A DNA stretch of 64,000 nt from Spirochaetia bacterium (GTDB lineage: Bacteria > Spirochaetota > Spirochaetia > SP-2023): assembly GCA_965225855.1 (NCBI GenBank), contig CBDDCK010000005.1, positions 1,504,001-1,568,000 on the forward strand, in the 5' to 3' direction. The notes beneath the pieces are model-generated. The model was not told where the DNA came from. It saw only the letters and a list, made by a program, of their open reading frames with translations, and did not search any database. Shown in pieces: positions 3,638 through 63,022 of the stretch (its first letter is position 1; each line of letters begins with the position of its first letter). Position numbers and translations under genes: made by a program.

Positions 3638-4253
3638 AAAATAAAACAAATTTCTTTTGTGCATTGCCAAAGGGCCTGGGCAAGATTAGATAGGATTTTG
3701 ACGCAAAATTGAAGCAGGACGCGGCATAAATTTGTATCTTTGAAACAATCACTTATGGAAATTTGTCCTTTGGTGCCCGAATTGGCTCAAGTTGTGGTAC
3801 AGTTTTCGTAACGAAGGTAGAGATTTGACTCAATGAGTCGCCCAATGAGCTATGCCATCATTTTTTACTGCTACTGTAGTTTGGGCTATTTATGAACGAA
3901 ACTCGGGGCACGGAATATTGAATCAAGTGATATTGGCTAGCATTGTTTTAATCCATTATCTAAGAAATCATTGAACAAAAAAGCAAATTCCAAGTGGATT
4001 CACCTGAAAAATTTACTTGGTAAAACCTGCAAGTAATTTCAAATGGAACTCCGCTTTATGATACGGAACATGATAACTGAACGGGATAAGACGCGATAAC
4101 TCGGGATTTTTTTGGGCACAAATGGAAGGTAAAAATTGGCTTACTTTCCAAAATAAAAAGGTAAAAAATTTTTGTTTTTCGGCATATGGGCCATTGTCGG
4201 CAGTAATTGGGCAACAATATGCTTTCAAAATATCATGGTAACGGGCCGTAGTC

Positions 4254-4621: not shown

Positions 4622-4649
4622 TTGACGCAACACCCCCCCCTCACAAAAT
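4622..4649 (+). promoter_or_regulatory. Candidate sigma70 promoter with a poly-C tract (C8) in the spacer
   Basis: TTGACG, 16 nt including C8, then CAAAAT. The arrangement is conserved upstream of all three lipoprotein paralogues. Confidence 0.5.
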
Positions 4650-4713: not shown

Positions 4714-6501
4714 ATGTATAAGCTCAAACTATTTTTATTGCCTGTAGCATTGCTACTGGCCTTTATGGCCTTTGCCTGCGCCCCACCCGATGACGATGAT
4801 CGATCTTCTGGGCCGACTATCAATAACGCCATCTACGATGTTGGCACGGCTATCTTAACCGTACAAGGTACTGACTTAAGTCCTACAACTGCGACCCAAG
4901 CGCAAATCCAAACTATCAGGGTAGGAAGCCGAACAAATGGTGTAGCTTTCAGTTCCTATACTGCAGATGACGATGCCACTGGGGTAAATAGTAACGGTCT
5001 TGAAAAAGGTAAGTACCGTATTAAAAGCGATGGCACAGCGCTTTGGCTTAGACTTACCAATCAACATAAAGCTGTTCTTGAGGCCAAGACAGGTATGGAT
5101 AGCGATAGTCTAAAAAAAGGGTTGCTTAGCGTTAGCTCGGGTGCTTGGGCGGGTTTAGATACAGCCAAAGACTTAACCGTTAATATACTCGGTAAGCCAT
5201 CTAAGCAAACCGAAGCCGAACAAGACGAACAAGCCGAAGAAGAGTCGCGTAAGCAAACTGAAGACGAACAAGCTGAACAAGTCGAACAAGCTGAACAAGT
5301 CGAAGAGCAGTCGCGTAAGCAAACTGAAGACGAACAAGCTGAACAAGTCGAACAAGTCGAAGAAGAGTCGCCTAAGCAACCTAAAGCCGAAGAGCAGTCG
5401 CCTAAAGCCGCAATTACCCGTGCAAGCTACCATGTTGGCACGGCGCTGCTAACTTTACAAGGTACTCACTTAGGTAGTGCGACCCAAGCCCAAATCCAAA
5501 CCATCAAAGTATATGGCGTAGTCTTAAGTTCCTATACTGCAGATGACCCAGCCACTGGGCCAGATAGTCGCAGTCTTGCAAAAGGTAAGTACCGTATGAA
5601 AAGCGATGGCACAGCGCTTTGGCTTAGACTTACCGATGCCGATAAAGCTACTCTGAATGACAAGAAAGGTATGGATACCAATGGTCTAAAAGATGGGTTG
5701 CTTAGCGTTGGCTCTGGTGCTTGGGCGGGTTTAAATACAGCCAAACCCTTAACCGTTAGTGGACACCCTGCAATTACCAGTGCAACGTTTAATGCTGTTA
5801 CAGGCTGGTTAGTGATTACAGGTACTAATTTACCGTCAACAGTGGATGGCTGGGACTTTAGCAAATTGAGGTTTGTCTCAGGTATTGGTATTGAGAGTCA
5901 ACCATTAAAAAAGCACTCAACTACAGGTGCAGACAGAGCCACAGGTTCTGCAGCAAGTGGCACATTCTTAGTGATTATTTTAGAGGGTGAAGCAAGAATA
6001 AAAGCCTCTAATGCATTGACGCAGAATGGTCTTGGTGATGATCATGGTGCATACAACCTGAAAGCAGCAGCAGGATTTGCAGGTGGTAGCGCAGCAGACA
6101 CAAGCAATAACCCGATTACCGTTAGTGGCTACAAAAGCTCTATCAGCACCGTATACTACTATCGTAATAAAGGCAGGTTATTGATTTACGGTAACAAGTT
6201 ACCGAAAACATTTACAGAGTGGGACTTTAGCAAATTGACGCTTGTATCCGGTGATGGTAGTAAGAGATACCCATTACCCCAGCACGCAATAGGTGAAAAC
6301 ACAGCCACAGGTTCTGCAGCAAGTACAACAAGAGTAACTATTACTTTAAGCGGTAGTGTAAAAGCGGAAGCCGAGAAGATACTGGTTAACGATGGTAAAA
6401 GTGATAATAATGGTGCATACAACCTGGAAGCAGCAGCAGGATTTGTAACGGGTAATCCAGAAGACTTAACAAATCAGATTGTGGTTAGTGCTAGTAAGTA
6501 G
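4714..6501 (+). CDS. Modular surface lipoprotein, paralogue 1 (A - Q/E-rich linker - A - B - B)
   Basis: GGAGG RBS precedes ATG 4714. Signal peptide MYKLKLFLLPVALLLAFMAFA-C, internal repeated modules, and close paralogues at 48673 and 60826. Confidence 0.85.
   Translation: MYKLKLFLLPVALLLAFMAFACAPPDDDDRSSGPTINNAIYDVGTAILTVQGTDLSPTTATQAQIQTIRVGSRTNGVAFSSYTADDDATGVNSNGLEKGKYRIKSDGTALWLRLTNQHKAVLEAKTGMDSDSLKKGLLSVSSGAWAGLDTAKDLTVNILGKPSKQTEAEQDEQAEEESRKQTEDEQAEQVEQAEQVEEQSRKQTEDEQAEQVEQVEEESPKQPKAEEQSPKAAITRASYHVGTALLTLQGTHLGSATQAQIQTIKVYGVVLSSYTADDPATGPDSRSLAKGKYRMKSDGTALWLRLTDADKATLNDKKGMDTNGLKDGLLSVGSGAWAGLNTAKPLTVSGHPAITSATFNAVTGWLVITGTNLPSTVDGWDFSKLRFVSGIGIESQPLKKHSTTGADRATGSAASGTFLVIILEGEARIKASNALTQNGLGDDHGAYNLKAAAGFAGGSAADTSNNPITVSGYKSSISTVYYYRNKGRLLIYGNKLPKTFTEWDFSKLTLVSGDGSKRYPLPQHAIGENTATGSAASTTRVTITLSGSVKAEAEKILVNDGKSDNNGAYNLEAAAGFVTGNPEDLTNQIVVSASK
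5195..5405 (+). repeat. Intragenic imperfect tandem repeats encoding a Gln/Glu-rich linker
   Basis: Repeated SRKQTEDEQAEQVEQ units and 9-nt GAACAAGCT/GAACAAGTC sub-units. Confidence 0.85.
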
Positions 6502-6700
6502 GGTTTTGTTGTTGCAACGCTTGCATTGGCCAATTGCAGCCTTGATAAATTTTTTATCAAGGCTGCTTTTATCAATTATAGCCTTGGTATAAAGTATTGT
6601 TCCGCATTGGTGCAATACATCTTTCCGCCTTGGATCAAGGCCTTGATCCAAGGCGGAAAGCTATATCATAGCAAGGCACTAAAAAATTTATTAAGTCTAC
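6495..6700. repeat. Palindrome-rich 3' element shared by the lipoprotein cassettes, including a perfect 40-bp palindrome
   Basis: CTTTCCGCCTTGGATCAAGG|CCTTGATCCAAGGCGGAAAG at 6621-6660 is identical at 48511-48550. AGCCTTG/CAAGGCT cores recur, and there is a partial second copy at ~6886-6930. Confidence 0.9.
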
Positions 6701-7085
6701 AAACTTTTTTAGTAATAGCTTTGAACAAACCCCTTACAATAATTATTACCAGAACGTTGCCATAACAATTAAGAGAGTCTCTTAATGCCTAACAAGAGAA
6801 TTTCTTAATAACTAACAAGAATTTTTTGTAACAAGATAAACTTTGGCCAAGCCTTGCTTGCCTTTTGGGTGGGCTATTAGACTGTGTTTGGTTGTTGCAA
6901 GGCTTGCATTGTCCAATTACAGCCTTGGAAAGTAGAAGAGTCGAGTTATCACGCCTAAGCTGCAGTTTGGGTATGTAGAGGGAAGGAAGCTGGGGTTTAA
7001 TCATTTCAATTAAGATTTCAATAAAATGTGATTTTCGGTATAATAGGCAAAAAGCTCTCTTTGTAATTTTGTAATAAGGATTCAA

Positions 7086-47942: not shown

Positions 47943-48444
47943 TTTGTTATTCCTATATTTTTTATTGGCAATGACTGGGAGTTATCTATAAAAAAGCAAA
48001 TTGAAAATTAAGTATTTTTCGCAATGTTTTTAAACTGCTAGTGGACTGTATTATATGTATCGTAGATGTTGTTGTGAAGATACAATGGTAATACTTGGTA
48101 AACGGGTATGCCATTTTGGGACTGGTAGAGGACTTGGATAATATTTTATAACTTATGGCTTAGCAGGCTACAGCGTACAGTAGCTCTTGCCGTTCAGAAT
48201 GGCATTGATGGCTTTTGTGATAATATTCAAATTTATGGCTTAGAGTTTGGTAATAATGGCTATATAGAGGTAATTCGCCTGCAACTACTTGGAATAAAGC
48301 TTTTAGTACTATTTCGCTATTTTGGCTAGGAATACTGAATTGGAGTAAGAAATATCATTATTCGGCCTAGGTTGACGACTGCGAAATAGAGTGATGCAGG
48401 ACGTGATAACTTTGTGCCATCGGACGTGATAACTCGATTTTTTC

Positions 48445-48675
48445 TACTTACCAAGGCTATAATTGGCAAAAGCAGCCTTAATAAATTTTTCTAGCCTTGC
48501 TATGATATAGCTTTCCGCCTTGGATCAAGGCCTTGATCCAAGGCGGAAAGATGTATTGCACCAATGCGGAACAATACTTTATACCAAGGCTATAATTGGC
48601 CTATGCAGCCTTGATAAAAAACTTACCAAGGCTGCATAGGCCAATGCAAGCGTTGCAACAACCAAACCCTACTTA
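48445..48675. repeat. Palindrome-rich 3' element of lipoprotein cassette 2
   Basis: Perfect 40-bp palindrome at 48511-48550 and a 19-bp-arm hairpin ATTGGCCTATGCAGCCTTG...CAAGGCTGCATAGGCCAAT at 48595-48645. Near-identical to the reverse complement of 6495-6700. Confidence 0.9.
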
Positions 48676-50943
48676 CCAATCTACAACTTGAATAGCATTG
48701 TTTAGGTCTGCTGGACCACCAGATACAAATTCTGCTGCTGCTTCAAGGTTGTATGCACCATTAGCATCACTTTTACCAACCTTAACCAGTATCTTCTCGA
48801 CTTCCGCTTTTACACTACCGCTTAAAGTAATATCTAAGCTGCTTCTAGTTGGATTAGAACCTGTGGCTGTATTTTCACCTGCGGTTGCGTGCCGTGGTAA
48901 TGTGTATCTCTTATTACCATCACCGGATACAAGCGTCAATTTGCTAAAGTCCCAGTCTGCAACTGCTCTCGGTAACCTGCTACCATAAATAGTTAACTCG
49001 CCAGTATTAGGTACGTATAATGCGGATTTGATCTGGCTTACATGGCCACTAACGATAATCGGGTTGCTTGGGTCTGCTGCGCTATAACCTGCAAATCCTG
49101 CTGCTGCTTCCAGGTTGTATGCACCAGCATTATCACGAAGACCATCCTTAACCAGTATCTTCTCGGCTTCCGCTTTTACACTACCGCTTAAAGTAATCGT
49201 TAAGCTTGTTGTATTTGCTAAAGAACCTGTGGCTGTGTTTGCACCTGTTGAGGAGTGCCGGGGTAATTGGTATCTCTTACTACCATCACCGGATACAAGC
49301 GTCAATTTGCTAAAGTCCCAGCCTGTAACTGCTTTTGGTAAACCGCCACCATTAATATATAACACGCCTGTGTTAACATAGTAGTATAAGTCTTTGATAA
49401 AACCTACATAGCCACTAACGATAATCGGGTTGCTTGTGTCTTCAGCCCTACCACCTGCAAATCCTGCTGCTGCTTCCAGGTTGTATGCACCATTATCATC
49501 ACTATCACCATTCTTAACCAGTATAGCATCGGCTTTGTCTTTTTCACTACCCTTTAAAAGAATCGTTAAGCTTGTTGCACTTGCTGCAGAACCTGTGGCT
49601 GTATTTTCACCTATTGCGTGCCGGGGTAATGTGTAGCTCTCACTACCATCACCGGATACAAGCCTCAATTTGCTAAAGTCCCAGCCTGTAACTGCTTTTG
49701 GTAAATTGACACCTGTAATCACTAACACGTCTGTAACAATATTGTAGGTTGCACGGGTAATTGCGGGTGGGTTACCACTAACGGCCAAGGCTTTGGCTGT
49801 ATCTAAACCCGCCCAAGTACCAGTGCTAGTAAGCAACCCATCTTTTAGACCATTGCTATCCATACCTGTCTTGCCATTCAGAGTAGCTTTATGTTGATCG
49901 GTAAGGTAAAGCCAAAGCGCTGTGCCATCGCTTTTAATGCGGTACTTACCTTTTGCAAGACCACGACTATCTGGCCCAGTGGCATCCTCATCTGCAATAT
50001 AGGAACTTAAGGCTAAGCCATCTACCGTGATGGTTTGGATTTGCGCTTCTGTAGGACTTAAGTTAGAACCTTGTACAGTTAAGATAGCCGTGCCAACATG
50101 GTAGGTTGCACTGGTGATTTCGGGGTTTCCACTAACGGTTAAGTCTTTGGCTGTATTTAAACCCGCCCAACTACCAGTGCTAGTAAGCAACCCATCTTTT
50201 AGACCATTGGTATCCATACCTGTCTTGCCATTCAGATTAGCTTTATGTTGATCGGTAAGGTAAAGCCAAAGCGCTGTGCCATCGCTTTTAATGCGGTACT
50301 TACCTTTTGCAAGACCACGACTATCTGGCCCAGTGGCTGTGCCATCTGCAATATAGGAATCTAAAGCTACCCCATCTACCGTGATGGTTTGGATTTGCGC
50401 TTGGGTCGCACTAGCTAAGTCAGTACCTTGTACAGTTAGCAGAGCCGTGCCAACATTGTAGCTTGCACGGGTAATTGCGGGTGGGTTTCCACTAACGGCC
50501 AAGTCTTTGGCTGTATTTAAACCCGCCCAAGTACCAGAGCCAACGCTAAGCAACCCTTTTTTTAGACCATTGCTACCCACCTTGGCCTCAAGAACAGCTT
50601 TATGTTGATCGGTAAGTCTAAGCCAAAGCTTTGTGCCATCGCCTTTAATACGGTACTTACCTTGTTCAAGACCGTTACTATCTTCACCAGTGGCTGGGTC
50701 ATCTGCAGTATAGGAACTTAAGGCTACGCCATCTACTACAATGGTTTGGATTTGCGCTTCTGTAGGACTTAAGTTAGAACCTTGTATGGTTAACAGAGCC
50801 GTGCCAACATCGTAGATGGCGTTATTGATAGTCGGCTTAGACGGCCCAGAAGACGGCGCATCGTCATCGGGTGGGGCGCAGGCCAAGGCCATAAAGGCCA
50901 GTAGCCAGGCTACAGGCAATAAAAGTAGTTTGAGCTTATACAT
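48673..50943 (-). CDS. Modular surface lipoprotein, paralogue 2 (A-A-A-B-B-B)
   Basis: GGAGG RBS, signal MYKLKLLLLPVAWLLAFMALA-C, three A and three B modules, no Q/E linker. Confidence 0.85.
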   Translation of the reverse strand: MYKLKLLLLPVAWLLAFMALACAPPDDDAPSSGPSKPTINNAIYDVGTALLTIQGSNLSPTEAQIQTIVVDGVALSSYTADDPATGEDSNGLEQGKYRIKGDGTKLWLRLTDQHKAVLEAKVGSNGLKKGLLSVGSGTWAGLNTAKDLAVSGNPPAITRASYNVGTALLTVQGTDLASATQAQIQTITVDGVALDSYIADGTATGPDSRGLAKGKYRIKSDGTALWLYLTDQHKANLNGKTGMDTNGLKDGLLTSTGSWAGLNTAKDLTVSGNPEITSATYHVGTAILTVQGSNLSPTEAQIQTITVDGLALSSYIADEDATGPDSRGLAKGKYRIKSDGTALWLYLTDQHKATLNGKTGMDSNGLKDGLLTSTGTWAGLDTAKALAVSGNPPAITRATYNIVTDVLVITGVNLPKAVTGWDFSKLRLVSGDGSESYTLPRHAIGENTATGSAASATSLTILLKGSEKDKADAILVKNGDSDDNGAYNLEAAAGFAGGRAEDTSNPIIVSGYVGFIKDLYYYVNTGVLYINGGGLPKAVTGWDFSKLTLVSGDGSKRYQLPRHSSTGANTATGSLANTTSLTITLSGSVKAEAEKILVKDGLRDNAGAYNLEAAAGFAGYSAADPSNPIIVSGHVSQIKSALYVPNTGELTIYGSRLPRAVADWDFSKLTLVSGDGNKRYTLPRHATAGENTATGSNPTRSSLDITLSGSVKAEVEKILVKVGKSDANGAYNLEAAAEFVSGGPADLNNAIQVVDW

Positions 50944-51007
50944 AAGCAATACCTCCAAAAATGGATAAAGATTGACAAAACCCATACGGGCTAGTCTGTA
51001 AATCCCT

Positions 51008-51034
51008 ATTTTGCTAGGGGGGGTGTTGCGTCAA
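51008..51034 (-). promoter_or_regulatory. Candidate promoter with a C7 tract (paralogue 2)
   Basis: Minus strand reads TTGACG-CAACA-C7-TAG-CAAAAT, a 15-nt spacer. Confidence 0.45.
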
Positions 51035-51070
51035 GGCCCATACAAGCTTTTTGTAAGCTTTTTACAAGTT

Positions 51071-51120
51071 TTTTTGTGTTTTTTTGTGTTTTTTTATGTT
51101 TTTTTATGTTTTTTTATGTT
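51071..51120. repeat. Five tandem 10-bp units (phased A/T tracts)
   Basis: TTTTTGTGTT x2 then TTTTTATGTT x3, directly upstream of the candidate promoter. Confidence 0.9.
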
Positions 51121-51273
51121 TGGGCACTTTTTTTGTGTGTTAGTGTTGTAATGAAAACGGGATATTATTCTTTCAGGGGCGTTCAGAATTTGGCCAACGA
51201 TTTCCGATGATTGTTGTATAGGTCCTGGATTATGTGCCGATGTAGAAAATTTCATTAAAGACTAGGGTATTAA

Positions 51274-51573
51274 TAGGTGGGAGGTAATTCTATTGATAGA
51301 TTTAAGTCGATTCTATTATATAGGTGTGAGGTAATTCTATCAATAGATTTAAGTCAAATCTATCAATAGGTGGGAGGTAATTCTATTGATAGATTTGGGT
51401 CGATTCTATTATATAGGTGGGAGGTAATTCTATTGATAGATTTAGGTCGATTCTATCAATAGGTGGGAGGTAATTCTATTGATAGATTTAGGTCGATTCT
51501 ATTATATAGGTGGGAGGTAATTCTATTGATAGATTTAGGTCGATTCTATTATATAGGTGTGAGGTAATTCTAT
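51274..51573. repeat. Tandem array of about 6.4 units of 46-47 bp with internal dyad symmetry
   Basis: Unit TAGGTGGGAGGTAATTCTATTGATAGATTTAGGTCGATTCTATTATA starts at 51274, 51321, 51367, 51414, 51460, 51507 and 51554 (partial). No unique spacers. Confidence 0.95.
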
Positions 51574-52390
51574 GGTTAGAGGGGTCTGGGGTATTTATTT
51601 ATCGGTATTGTTCTGCTTTAGCCTTAGCTAAAATTTCTTTTACCAGCCTATCATGAATAATCGTTTGGCTATGTTTTAGGCTTTTTTTATCTGAAGCCCT
51701 TTCGCCTTTACCTTGCGGCTCTTCTGGGTATTTAGCGAAAGCGCTCGTTTTGAGACCGTGGCCCGTTACCATGATATTTTGAAAGCATATTGTTGCCGAC
51801 AACCCATATGCCGAAAAACAAAAATTTTTTACTTGTTCCATTTGTGGATTCAGCCGAAAGGCACAAAAAAAGCGGTGCATGGTTTGGTTATCCTAGCACC
51901 GCTTTGGCTTTTTGAAGTTTTGAGCGTTTTGCTCTGGTTTGGTGTTAAAAATGGATTCTGGCTTTTTCTCGTGCTTGGAAAGTAAGCCAATTTTACCTTC
52001 CCATTTGTTCCAAAAAATCCCGAGTTATCACGTCTTATCCCGTTCAGTTATCATGTCCTCTTTCAATTGGGGGACGAGACTCAATTGCAAATATGGAATC
52101 TCAAGATGCAAAGAAAAACATAGAGAAAGGGCATGAGATGATGCAAAATAATTGAAAAGTGCTATTTACTAGCGATTTGAGCCTTTTATTTTGACCTTGA
52201 TGTTTTTGTATTGGTTTCATTAAAAATTTTTATTAAATTTTTTACAGTAATATTGCAGCTTATTATCGAATCTGAAATATATATTCTTAACTAATTTGTC
52301 TAAGCTATTTACGAAACTTTTGCATTGTAGGTTTTCTAAGTTTCTGCTAAACTGCTGATTTTTTCAAAAAACTCCAAAAAAGGAGAGAGT

Positions 52391-60825: not shown

Positions 60826-62517
60826 ATGTATAAGCTCAAACTACTTTTATTGCCTGTAGCATTGCTACTGGCCTTTATGGCCTTTGCCTGCGCCCCACCC
60901 GATGACGATGATCGATCTTCTGCGCCGTCTAAGCCGACTATCAATAACGCCATCTACGATTTTACTACGGCGCTGTTAACCGTACAAGGCACTAACTTAA
61001 GTCCTACAGAAGCCCAAATCCAAACCATCGTAGTAGATGGCGTAGCTTTAGATTCCTATACTGCAGATGAGGATGCCACTGGGCCAGATAGTAGCGGTCT
61101 TGAACAAGGTAAGTACCGTATTAAAAGCGATGGCACAGCGCTTTGGCTTAGACTTACCGATCAACATAAAGCTACTCTTGAGGCCAAGGTGGATAGCAAT
61201 GGTCTAAAAAAAGGGTTGCTTACTAGCTCTGGTGCTTGGGCGGGTTTAAATACAGCCAAAGACTTAACTGTTAGGAATATACCCGATAAGCAGTCGCCTA
61301 AGCAAACCGAACAAACTGAAGATAAGCAGTCTAAGACCGAAACCAAAGATCAGTCGCCTAAGTTACCCGAAGCCGAACAAGCTGAAGAAGAGTCGCTTAA
61401 GCAACCTAAAGACAAACAAGTCGAAGAGGAGTCGCCTAAAGCCGCAATTACCGGTGCAACCTACAATGTTAATACAAGTGTGTTAGTGATTACAGGTATT
61501 CACTTAGGTAGTGCGACCCAAGCGCAAATCCAAACCATCGTGGTAGATGGCTTAGCCTTAAATTCCTATATTGCAGATGGCACAGCCACTGGGCCAGATA
61601 GTCGCAGTCTTACAAAAGGTAAGTACCGTATGAAAAGCGATGGCACAGCGCTTTGGCTTTACCTTACCGATGACGATAAAACTACTCTTGAGGCCAAGCC
61701 CGGTATGAATACCAATGGTCTAAAAGATGGGTTGCTTACTAGCACTGGTACTTGGGCGGGTTTAAATACAGCCAAAGCCTTGGCCGTTAGCGGAAACCCC
61801 GAAGCCGCAATTACCAGTGCAACCTACAATGCTATTACAGGCGTGTTAGTGATTAATGGTACTAATTTACCGACAGCAGTTACAGGCTGGGACTTTAGCA
61901 AATTGAGGCTTGTATCCGGTGATGGTAAGAAGAAATACACATTACCCGATCACAACCCATTTTCAGCCACAGGTTCTGCAGCAAGTGTAACAAGCTTAAC
62001 GATTACTTTAACGGGTAATGAAAAAGCCAAAGCCAATGCTATATTGGTTAAGGATGGTGATAGTGATAATGCTGGTGCATACAACCTGGAAGCAGCAGCA
62101 GGATTTGCAGGTGGTAGCGCTGAAGACACAAGCAACCCTATTACCGTTAGTGGCTACGCAAGCCAGCTCACCGGAGTACATTACTATTCTAGTTCAGGCA
62201 AGTTAATTATTCGTGGTAGCAGGTTACCGAGAGCATTTACAGACTGGGACTTTAGCAAATTGACGATTGTATCCGGTGATGGTAGTAAGAGATACCCATT
62301 ACCCCAGCACGCAATAGGTGAAAACACAGCCACAGGTTCTGCAGCAAATACAATAGGCTTAATTATTATTTTAAGCGGTAGTGTAAAAGCGGAAGTCGAG
62401 AAGATACTGGTTCAGACTGGTGGTAATGATGATGCTGGTAACTACAACCTGGAAGCAGCAGCAGGATTTGTAACGGGTAAGCCAGAAGACCCAACCACTA
62501 GTATAACAAAGTTTTAA
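60826..62517 (+). CDS. Modular surface lipoprotein, paralogue 3 (A - Q/E/K linker - hybrid B/A - B - B)
   Basis: GGAGG RBS, signal MYKLKLLLLPVALLLAFMAFA-C, and the same modules as paralogues 1 and 2. Confidence 0.85.
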   Translation: MYKLKLLLLPVALLLAFMAFACAPPDDDDRSSAPSKPTINNAIYDFTTALLTVQGTNLSPTEAQIQTIVVDGVALDSYTADEDATGPDSSGLEQGKYRIKSDGTALWLRLTDQHKATLEAKVDSNGLKKGLLTSSGAWAGLNTAKDLTVRNIPDKQSPKQTEQTEDKQSKTETKDQSPKLPEAEQAEEESLKQPKDKQVEEESPKAAITGATYNVNTSVLVITGIHLGSATQAQIQTIVVDGLALNSYIADGTATGPDSRSLTKGKYRMKSDGTALWLYLTDDDKTTLEAKPGMNTNGLKDGLLTSTGTWAGLNTAKALAVSGNPEAAITSATYNAITGVLVINGTNLPTAVTGWDFSKLRLVSGDGKKKYTLPDHNPFSATGSAASVTSLTITLTGNEKAKANAILVKDGDSDNAGAYNLEAAAGFAGGSAEDTSNPITVSGYASQLTGVHYYSSSGKLIIRGSRLPRAFTDWDFSKLTIVSGDGSKRYPLPQHAIGENTATGSAANTIGLIIILSGSVKAEVEKILVQTGGNDDAGNYNLEAAAGFVTGKPEDPTTSITKF

Positions 62518-62770: not shown

Positions 62771-63022
62771 TACGGGAAGCCAATATAGCCAAAGGCTGAA
62801 ACAACCAAGCTAAAAAGAACAAAAAAACTTGAAGCCGAATTGAATTACAGGCTTTAGACGGCTAAGTGGTTATATGATCGCAGTACAGCCTAAACAGTAA
62901 GTAAATTTGCACGCAAGTCGTTTGATTTTGCGTGCGCCGTTACATCGAGGGACTTCTAAACTTTTCTTTCTTTAAAGTAGTTAGGCTCTGCTATTAGATG
63001 TTTATCTATAATTGGTTAGTGT

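Follow-up and report, generated by a model that had tools for sequence, protein, structure and literature searches.

The stretch of DNA analysed here, referred to as the window, comprises the 64,000 nucleotides C5:1504001-1568000 of the genome of a Spirochaetia bacterium (G000, with C1, C3, C4 and C5 denoting its contigs). It contains two cassettes in which a promoter, a lipoprotein gene and 3' palindromic repeats lie between ends that resemble those of a B3/BcepMu-type transposable prophage on the same contig. Judged from sequence comparison, these cassettes and their counterparts elsewhere in the genome are probably natural mini-Mu-like units, which were moved in trans by the TnpA and TnpB proteins of the prophage and then reshuffled by recombination. 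In what follows, the L end of a cassette is that on the promoter side of the lipoprotein gene and the R end that on its 3' side; coordinates without a contig name are those of the window.

A cassette bounded by phage-like ends

Cassette 2 has the following parts.

48392..52065, minus strand: cassette 2, 3,674 bp, with the L end on the right, the R end on the left, TGA...TCA termini and no target duplication
48392..48453, plus strand: R end of cassette 2, 62 nt with 95% identity to the R tip of the prophage; its repeats at 48401-48411 and 48424-48434 are likely sites of transposase binding
48452..48655, no strand: 3' palindromic repeats of the lipoprotein family, with a 74-bp hairpin at 48494-48567
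48673..50943, minus strand: paralogue 2, 756 aa, with a signal peptide ending in LAC, followed by three predicted beta-sandwich domains of about 118 aa and three of about 122 aa; a mosaic of other paralogues
51008..51034, minus strand: predicted promoter of paralogue 2, with TTGACG, a 15-bp spacer containing C7, and CAAAAT
51268..51580, no strand: 47-bp tandem array, 6.7 copies
51841..52065, minus strand: L end of cassette 2, about 225 nt resembling the L end of the prophage apart from internal deletions, with repeats at 52046-52056 and 52023-52033

An earlier reading of the window from its letters (the sequence-only reading) had noted a perfect 14-bp inverted pair around paralogue 2. This pair is present (GACGTGATAACTCG at 48423-48436, its inverse at 52021-52034), as are the second copies of the motif at 48401 and 52056, each 23 bp farther from the gene. 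The same reading took the motifs as the boundaries of a mobile unit; the motifs stand, but the boundaries must be moved outward, since the true tips lie 9 bp past the outer motif (TGA at 48392 and 4059, TCA at 52065). The motif ACRYGATAACT occurs six times in the window against 0.08 expected, a count reached in none of 100 shuffles, and this core is the only part that the otherwise different L and R ends of cassette 2 have in common. As had also been observed, neither window cassette is flanked by a target duplication (the flanks of cassette 2 are CCCAAT and CTCTAT), and no enzyme was found in the window by a Pfam scan of 8 of its 62 open reading frames, the sole match of a genome-wide rve search lying outside it. 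No joint skipping cassette 2 was seen among 15 of 49 joints in contigs of four runs (at most three samples, two studies), and one run contig spans its R junction by just 30 nt, which is below the detection limit.

Ends, duplications and targets in the genome

When the motif is followed through the whole genome, as the sequence-only reading had suggested, the ends are found to form inverted pairs around further paralogues and to tip a prophage that carries a transposase. A looser core motif has 119 genome matches, mostly doubled at 23 bp. A tip-anchored scan of the assembly, which is 94% complete, gives 63 end calls, 31 L and 32 R, not counting the altered L tip of the prophage and the truncated R end of cassette 1. 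The lipoprotein family, membership of which was defined by an N-terminal motif, has 109 genes, and such a gene lies within 1.6 kb inward from 58 of the 63 ends, compared with about 6% expected. L ends are upstream of the gene in 30 of 30 cases and R ends downstream in 27 of 28. By end status, the 109 genes divide into 17 with both L and R, one with two R, 13 with L only, 9 with R only and 69 with neither. The end-bearing loci number about 40 in one chromosome, and the cassettes, 2.3-3.9 kb in length, hold no phage gene.

An exact 6-bp target duplication flanks 5 of the 18 two-ended cassettes (0 in 20,000 flank-pairing shuffles), while duplications of 4, 5 or 7 bp flank none of the 18. The targets show an N-Y-T-A-R-N-like preference, with a central TA in 28 of 63, and cassette C5:1449578 has an empty paralogous site at C5:1441011, where GTTAGG occurs singly. 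The genome-wide pairs, the 6-bp duplications and this one empty paralogous site support the proposal of the sequence-only reading that a cassette without transposase, made of promoter, lipoprotein gene and 3' palindromes, is served by an enzyme encoded elsewhere. Orthologous empty sites for the window were not obtained from three congeners, which are too rearranged for an ancestral order to be set: in each of them luxS, priA and gltX are widely separated or have different neighbours. Nor did the run contigs show an empty site.

Further scars are consistent with reshuffling: a 232-bp direct duplication surrounds C5:402242-405702, and the flanks of two cassettes adjoin in an empty copy at C5:1790129. 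Five L ends (C1:227251, C5:1325, 172403, 427678 and 1477305) share an outer flank that is lipoprotein upstream DNA, from which it would follow that a nested insertion was later copied without use of that tip, by a second route of dispersal. About half of the lipoprotein family appears to have been dispersed by another or older route.

Directly outside the tip, AAT is found in six TGAAAGAGG-type L ends (C1:5963, C5:1592757, C5:1620029 and window 52066-52068 among the sites cited). In two of these cases, copies of the empty site lack the AAT and only GCTT is common, which a plain 6-bp duplication fails to explain.

A transposable prophage as the likely helper

The sequence-only reading had likened the doubled motifs to the ends of Tn7 and the IS21 family; they match instead those of a B3/BcepMu-type transposable prophage of 36.1 kb (C5:1257677-1293766), situated about 250 kb before the window. 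Among the gene products of the prophage are a transposase, a transposition ATPase, DUF3164, GemA, Mor, a terminase and a portal of Mu type, and head and tail proteins. It has the TnpA, TnpB, GemA and Mor typical of its kind, and a length within the range of 36-39 kb given in the available part of PMC8705779. TnpA is single-copy and the sole rve match in the assembly. In its open 586-aa frame the residues D144, D238 and E274 are conserved in four of four aligned homologues and, from their spacing, probably constitute the DDE triad. The closest phage relatives of TnpA are Komp_PAO1_1, Bise, Ps59, BcepMu and B3.

Between cassette ends and prophage tips the similarity extends over 30-350 nt, in most cases at 85-99% identity, and at 77-81% where L ends are internally deleted. 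The R end of C5:1041147 runs into phage-specific DNA, 348 nt at 98.5%, and three R ends lie on phage baseplate genes, one of them closing the 36.1-kb prophage. The layout of an end is a TGA tip, 6 nt, and then an 11-bp repeat occurring twice at 23 bp. This layout is shared by one end of the Pseudomonas phage Bise, and in the prophage of congener G002, the TnpA of which is 55% identical, both tips consist of TGA, 6 nt and a variant of the 11-bp sequence repeated at 23 bp. In G002 the tip pattern has exactly two occurrences, the two ends of its prophage. This prophage (C1:229792-257556 of G002) is just 27.8 kb long; by tblastn its head-packaging block is apparently absent, and its tail-fibre modules are duplicated. 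According to the available part of PMC8705779, B3-type enzymes leave 6-bp duplications, which is also the length seen at the cassettes. The enzyme serving the cassettes is, in terms of sequence, likely to be the prophage TnpA acting in trans as predicted helper.

Partial copies of the prophage occur on C4 (about 8 kb of tail genes together with an R end, J being whole), on C3 (an R end) and at C5:2030137 (an L end with 690 nt). On C3 a 156-nt piece of the repressor region of the prophage adjoins the R tip, as though an insertion into a different phage copy had taken place, and a hairpin of the lipoprotein type is also present inside the prophage at C5:1264383.

The cargo family

With 109 members, 102 of them at least 500 aa long, the lipoprotein family occupies 213 kb, or 7.9% of the assembly. 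Paralogue 2 has a basic N-terminus, a hydrophobic stretch and Cys22, and is a predicted lipoprotein. Its six predicted beta-sandwich domains, encoded by DNA repeats of 354 and 366 nt, were modelled with a mean pLDDT of 82.9. No Pfam family scored above cut-off for this protein, and a whole-chain Foldseek search gave generic immunoglobulin (Ig)-chain matches only, with TM below 0.2. In the Atlas, the matches at 0.94 were clusters without a name. The C-terminal domains of about 122 aa match repeats of giant proteins with 28-40% identity, and 4 of 12 such proteins scanned bear DUF4347, Big_9, cadherin-like, RTX or Calx-beta domains. Because of these matches, the lipoproteins would appear to be adhesin-like. 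When cassette 2 is divided into 15 tiles, their best matches are spread over 12 different loci, a mosaic that suggests gene conversion. The 47-bp unit of its tandem array is found at 29 places in the genome, 26 of them near lipoprotein genes.

Each of the 109 genes is preceded by a TTGAC box, a C tract and a CA(A/C)AAT-like box (putative -10). The spacer is 15 bp in 85 of them, 14 in 21, 13 in 1, 16 in paralogue 1 and 17 in one (C5:800631). As 17 bp is the usual optimal promoter spacer, most copies would be silent or weakly expressed, and a copy would be switched on by slippage in the C tract. Promoter phase variation in Treponema is reportedly the subject of a published study. Antigenic variation by the family is plausible, and the cassettes account for part of the family only.

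Two longer, divergent members without ends (C5:353655-357602 and 571733-574801, with frames of 1315 and 1022 aa) may be older forms of the family; both adjoin coiled-coil genes starting MTDQELKDL. Outside this genome, the lipoprotein query matched none of 40 other genomes and the strict end pattern none of five. A scan of genome contigs with the end consensus gave four loci, two of which are the prophage tips of congener G002 (Candidatus Haliotispira prima, a spirochaete) and one a hydroxylase operon. The corresponding scans gave none in viral contigs and one in metagenome contigs, and revealed no second genome with such cassettes. The metagenome contig, which is phage-like, starts with the tip layout beside a methylase-like gene and a reverse-transcriptase-like gene with a small partner and, from the translations, resembles a diversity-generating retroelement.

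Cassette 1 and its inverted sister

Cassette 1, at the other side of the window, has a partner in opposite orientation 120 kb away (C5:1385280-1387897), and its features are these.

4053..4058, plus strand: target 6-mer GCTTTA, the partner copy of which lies next to the R end of the sister cassette, inverted, at C5:1385280
4059..4166, plus strand: L end of cassette 1, with 91% identity to the L end of the prophage and with repeats at 4068-4078 and 4091-4101
4622..4649, plus strand: predicted promoter of paralogue 1, with a C8 tract and a 16-bp spacer (the sole 16 among 109)
4714..6501, plus strand: paralogue 1, 595 aa; it and the paralogue at C5:1385406-1387244 are each other's best match (81% at the amino acid level)
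6512..6930, no strand: 3' palindromic repeats of cassette 1, with a 74-bp hairpin at 6604-6677
6930..6953, minus strand: truncated R end of cassette 1, in which the inner repeat is retained and the terminal TGA tip absent

The motifs that the sequence-only reading placed here, a doubled one at 4068 and 4091 and a single inverted copy at 6942-6954, are all found. Paralogue 1 has an acidic, Glu/Gln-rich insert (EQAEQVEQ...) between domains (5185-5410), which occurs in several other paralogues as well.

Over their first 900 nt, cassette 1 and its sister are 99.6% identical. The GCTTTA outside the L end of cassette 1 is the same 6-mer as that outside the R end of the sister, a coincidence with a per-pair chance of 0.0014. 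Crossed duplications of this kind between inverted copies are expected from replicative transposition with inversion, or from recombination between two copies. Among near-identical L pairs (n = 2), one of three testable comparisons gave a crossed 6-mer match. The complementary check of flanks is not clean, with CCTATC at the L flank of the sister and CCTAAG after the truncated R end of cassette 1. Beside the R end of the sister there is a gene remnant, the 5' half of which is absent at 3642-4058 and across the assembly, a result that neither supports nor refutes an inversion. The strand-corrected skew flips sign about 6 kb before cassette 2 and is noisy. The DnaA family PF00308, which could have placed the origin, had no match in the assembly while 13 of 14 controls matched; this may be an assembly gap. 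Judged by the crossed 6-mer and the orientation of the two copies, it is likely that the chromosome segment between cassette 1 and its sister (C5:1387898-1508058) has been inverted. The inversion is called likely rather than established because the tests by gene remnant, synteny and skew were uninformative.

A second, Mu-R-like end type

The window holds a third paralogue, absent from the sequence-only reading, and with it an end of a different type.

60826..62517, plus strand: paralogue 3, 563 aa, without B3-type ends
62875..62944, minus strand: end of the second type (TGTAACGGCGCACG...), on the 3' side of paralogue 3, with its tip at 62944; its first 19 nt match the R tip of phage Mu at 16 positions

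In the genome this second type has 18 pattern matches, one of them seemingly unrelated, and it is present at 13 of the 69 genes without B3-type ends. Within three mismatches of the Mu R tip there are 12 genome sites, compared with 0-2 for 25 shuffled tips, but all 12 represent a single sequence in several copies. Among such ends, no pair is connected by a duplication of 5 or 6 bp. No MuA-like gene was matched in the assembly, nor in four of four genomes of the genus, the latter search lacking a positive control. We consider with moderate confidence that the second end type derives from the tips of another transposable phage that has since been lost. That the B3-type cassettes themselves are elements of Mu/D3112 type was considered and rejected, there being no MuA match and no 5-bp duplication in any of the 18 pairs. 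At C5:1149479-1153164 an inverted pair with TGTAA tips encloses, as read from the sequence, HTH-type, small unknown and TPR-like genes and no lipoprotein gene.

Proposed mechanism and alternatives

The formation of the cassettes may be pictured as follows. In a copy of the prophage, a lipoprotein gene would have replaced the phage body. At each end, the two repeats would then have served as binding sites for TnpA, which together with TnpB would have copied the unit to N-Y-T-A-R-N-like targets. Through replicative transposition and through recombination among the copies, flanks would subsequently have been swapped, single ends lost and segments inverted. Such swapping and inversion would explain both the missing duplications in the window and the crossed 6-mer of cassette 1 and its sister. 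Gene conversion would continue to shuffle the Ig-like domains, and slippage in the promoter C tract, where the spacer is mostly 15 bp and 17 in one gene, would switch on single copies.

Several observations weigh against this picture. Target duplications are missing from 13 of the 18 two-ended cassettes, cassette 2 included, and from the truncated cassette 1; 69 of the 109 genes are without a B3-type end, and 52 are without an end remnant of any kind. The closest paralogues have a median identity of 75%, and few copies therefore look fresh. Three crossed 6-mers occur genome-wide, which is near the chance expectation of 1.4, and the other near-identical L pair is without a crossed match. The lack of a joint skipping cassette 2 among the 15 of 49 joints in the run contigs counts on the same side. 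As for the prophage, its R tip is canonical, whereas its L tip is altered in the first 11 nt and it has no duplication; its baseplate gene J is frameshifted, with the 3' part (C5:1292522-1292876, about 354 nt) replaced by palindromic repeats of the lipoprotein type. From the altered tip, the missing duplication and the broken J it follows that the helper may be extinct.

The replacement in J also means that conversion from cassette to phage takes place, and this gives substance to an alternative in which whole prophages jumped, made the 6-bp duplications and became cassettes by double crossover through L and R homology, so that no cassette ever transposed. The several partial prophage copies on C4, C3 and at C5:2030137, the cassette-type DNA in J and the mosaic nature of the cassettes, exemplified by the 15 tiles and 12 loci of cassette 2, are all in its favour. 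It nevertheless requires up to about 40 conversions through just 60-270 nt of homology, all with the same polarity and with very short phage remnants, and engineered mini-Mu and mini-D3112 transpose without a phage body (PMC8705779, available part). We regard this course of events as unlikely. Considerably less probable still is that the ends are used by an insertion sequence (IS) or Tn7-like transposase (IS21, IS481 or Tn552 type) absent from the assembly, the match to the prophage being due to common ancestry. Points in its favour are the 94% completeness of the assembly and the kinship of B3 TnpA with the Tn552 transposase (PMC8705779, available part). However, the cassette ends are nearly identical to the prophage tips and reach into phage-specific DNA, and the sole rve match is the phage TnpA, in a search that was neither specific for IstA or TnsB nor made IS family by IS family.

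The sequence-only reading had further allowed for an invertible switch, in which each cassette is flipped in place by a site-specific recombinase, and the perfect 14-bp inverted pair that bounds cassette 2 is what such a switch would have. This option falls away almost entirely: the L and R ends differ beyond the core, their polarity to the gene is constant in 57 of 58 cases, the target duplications indicate insertion, and no strand-change joint was seen among the 15 joints. As the promoter lies inside the cassette, flipping would moreover not switch expression.

Relation to known systems

The cassettes have TG...CA ends, 6-bp duplications and a related TnpA (28-37% identity) in common with B3/BcepMu-type phages, such as B3, Bise, BcepMu and the transposable prophages of Leptospira (PMC8705779, in the part available), and Bise has the same succession of TGA, 6 nt and an 11-bp repeat twice at 23 bp. 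In contrast to these phages, the cassettes are 2.3-3.9 kb long and have no phage gene but a single surface-protein gene of host type. Engineered mini-Mu and mini-D3112 (available parts of PMC8705779 and PMC5977238) likewise place phage ends around a passenger with the lethal phage genes absent; the cassettes differ in being natural, in having about 40 end-bearing loci, no transposase inside and one cargo family.

Close parallels are also provided by the mobile insertion cassettes (MICs) with TnXax1 ends that carry transcription activator-like effector (TALE) genes in Xanthomonas (PMC4337579, in the part available). There, too, transposase-less ends surround one variable, repeat-built gene family, duplications accompany some copies only, and solo ends and end-less paralogues coexist. 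Their ends are, however, of the Tn3 family with 5-bp duplications, whereas here phage ends go with 6-bp duplications and the family makes up about 8% of the assembly. In the terms by which MICs are recognised, the ends of an autonomous element surround a passenger gene here, with no transposase inside and, in 5 of the 18 two-ended copies though not in those of the window, with a duplication of the cognate length. TIMEs, the Tn3-derived miniature elements described in the available part of PMC4133298, are non-autonomous ends that mobilise the intervening DNA in trans, as is proposed here; they have Tn3-type 38-bp inverted repeats and their mobility has been demonstrated by experiment, whereas that of the cassettes is inferred. 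With respect to cargo, the giant repeat adhesin-like proteins (DUF4347, Big_9, cadherin-like, Calx-beta, RTX) have repeats that match the three C-terminal domains at 28-40%, whereas here the domains are carried by a predicted lipoprotein of 550-1000 aa for which no Pfam family reached its cut-off.

Mini-Mu elements are familiar from laboratory use. No publication on natural passenger cassettes made from transposable-phage ends was found in a search that left most subscription literature and all supplements aside, and the available part of PMC13626063 does not mention mini-Mu.

Implications

The about 60 natural ends define a minimal end of the B3 type, with two 11-bp sites per end and about 60 bp on R, together with its target preference, and the cassette ends could yield a compact transposon tool for spirochaetes. 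More tentatively, and with considerable doubt as to the whole, the ends of two transposable phages, the B3-type and, then or before, the Mu-type, may have been recruited to build, and still to reshuffle, a dispersed library of about 105 adhesin-like genes, or about 8% of the genome. These genes would mostly be off through their short spacers and be switched on singly by C-tract slippage, while a grounded prophage would be kept as the source of transposase and the moves of cassettes would invert the chromosome. If the cassettes are what they are taken to be here, the replication enzyme of a temperate phage became an amplifier of a host gene family, and variable surface repertoires would have a route of origin distinct from plasmid arrays or silent-cassette conversion.

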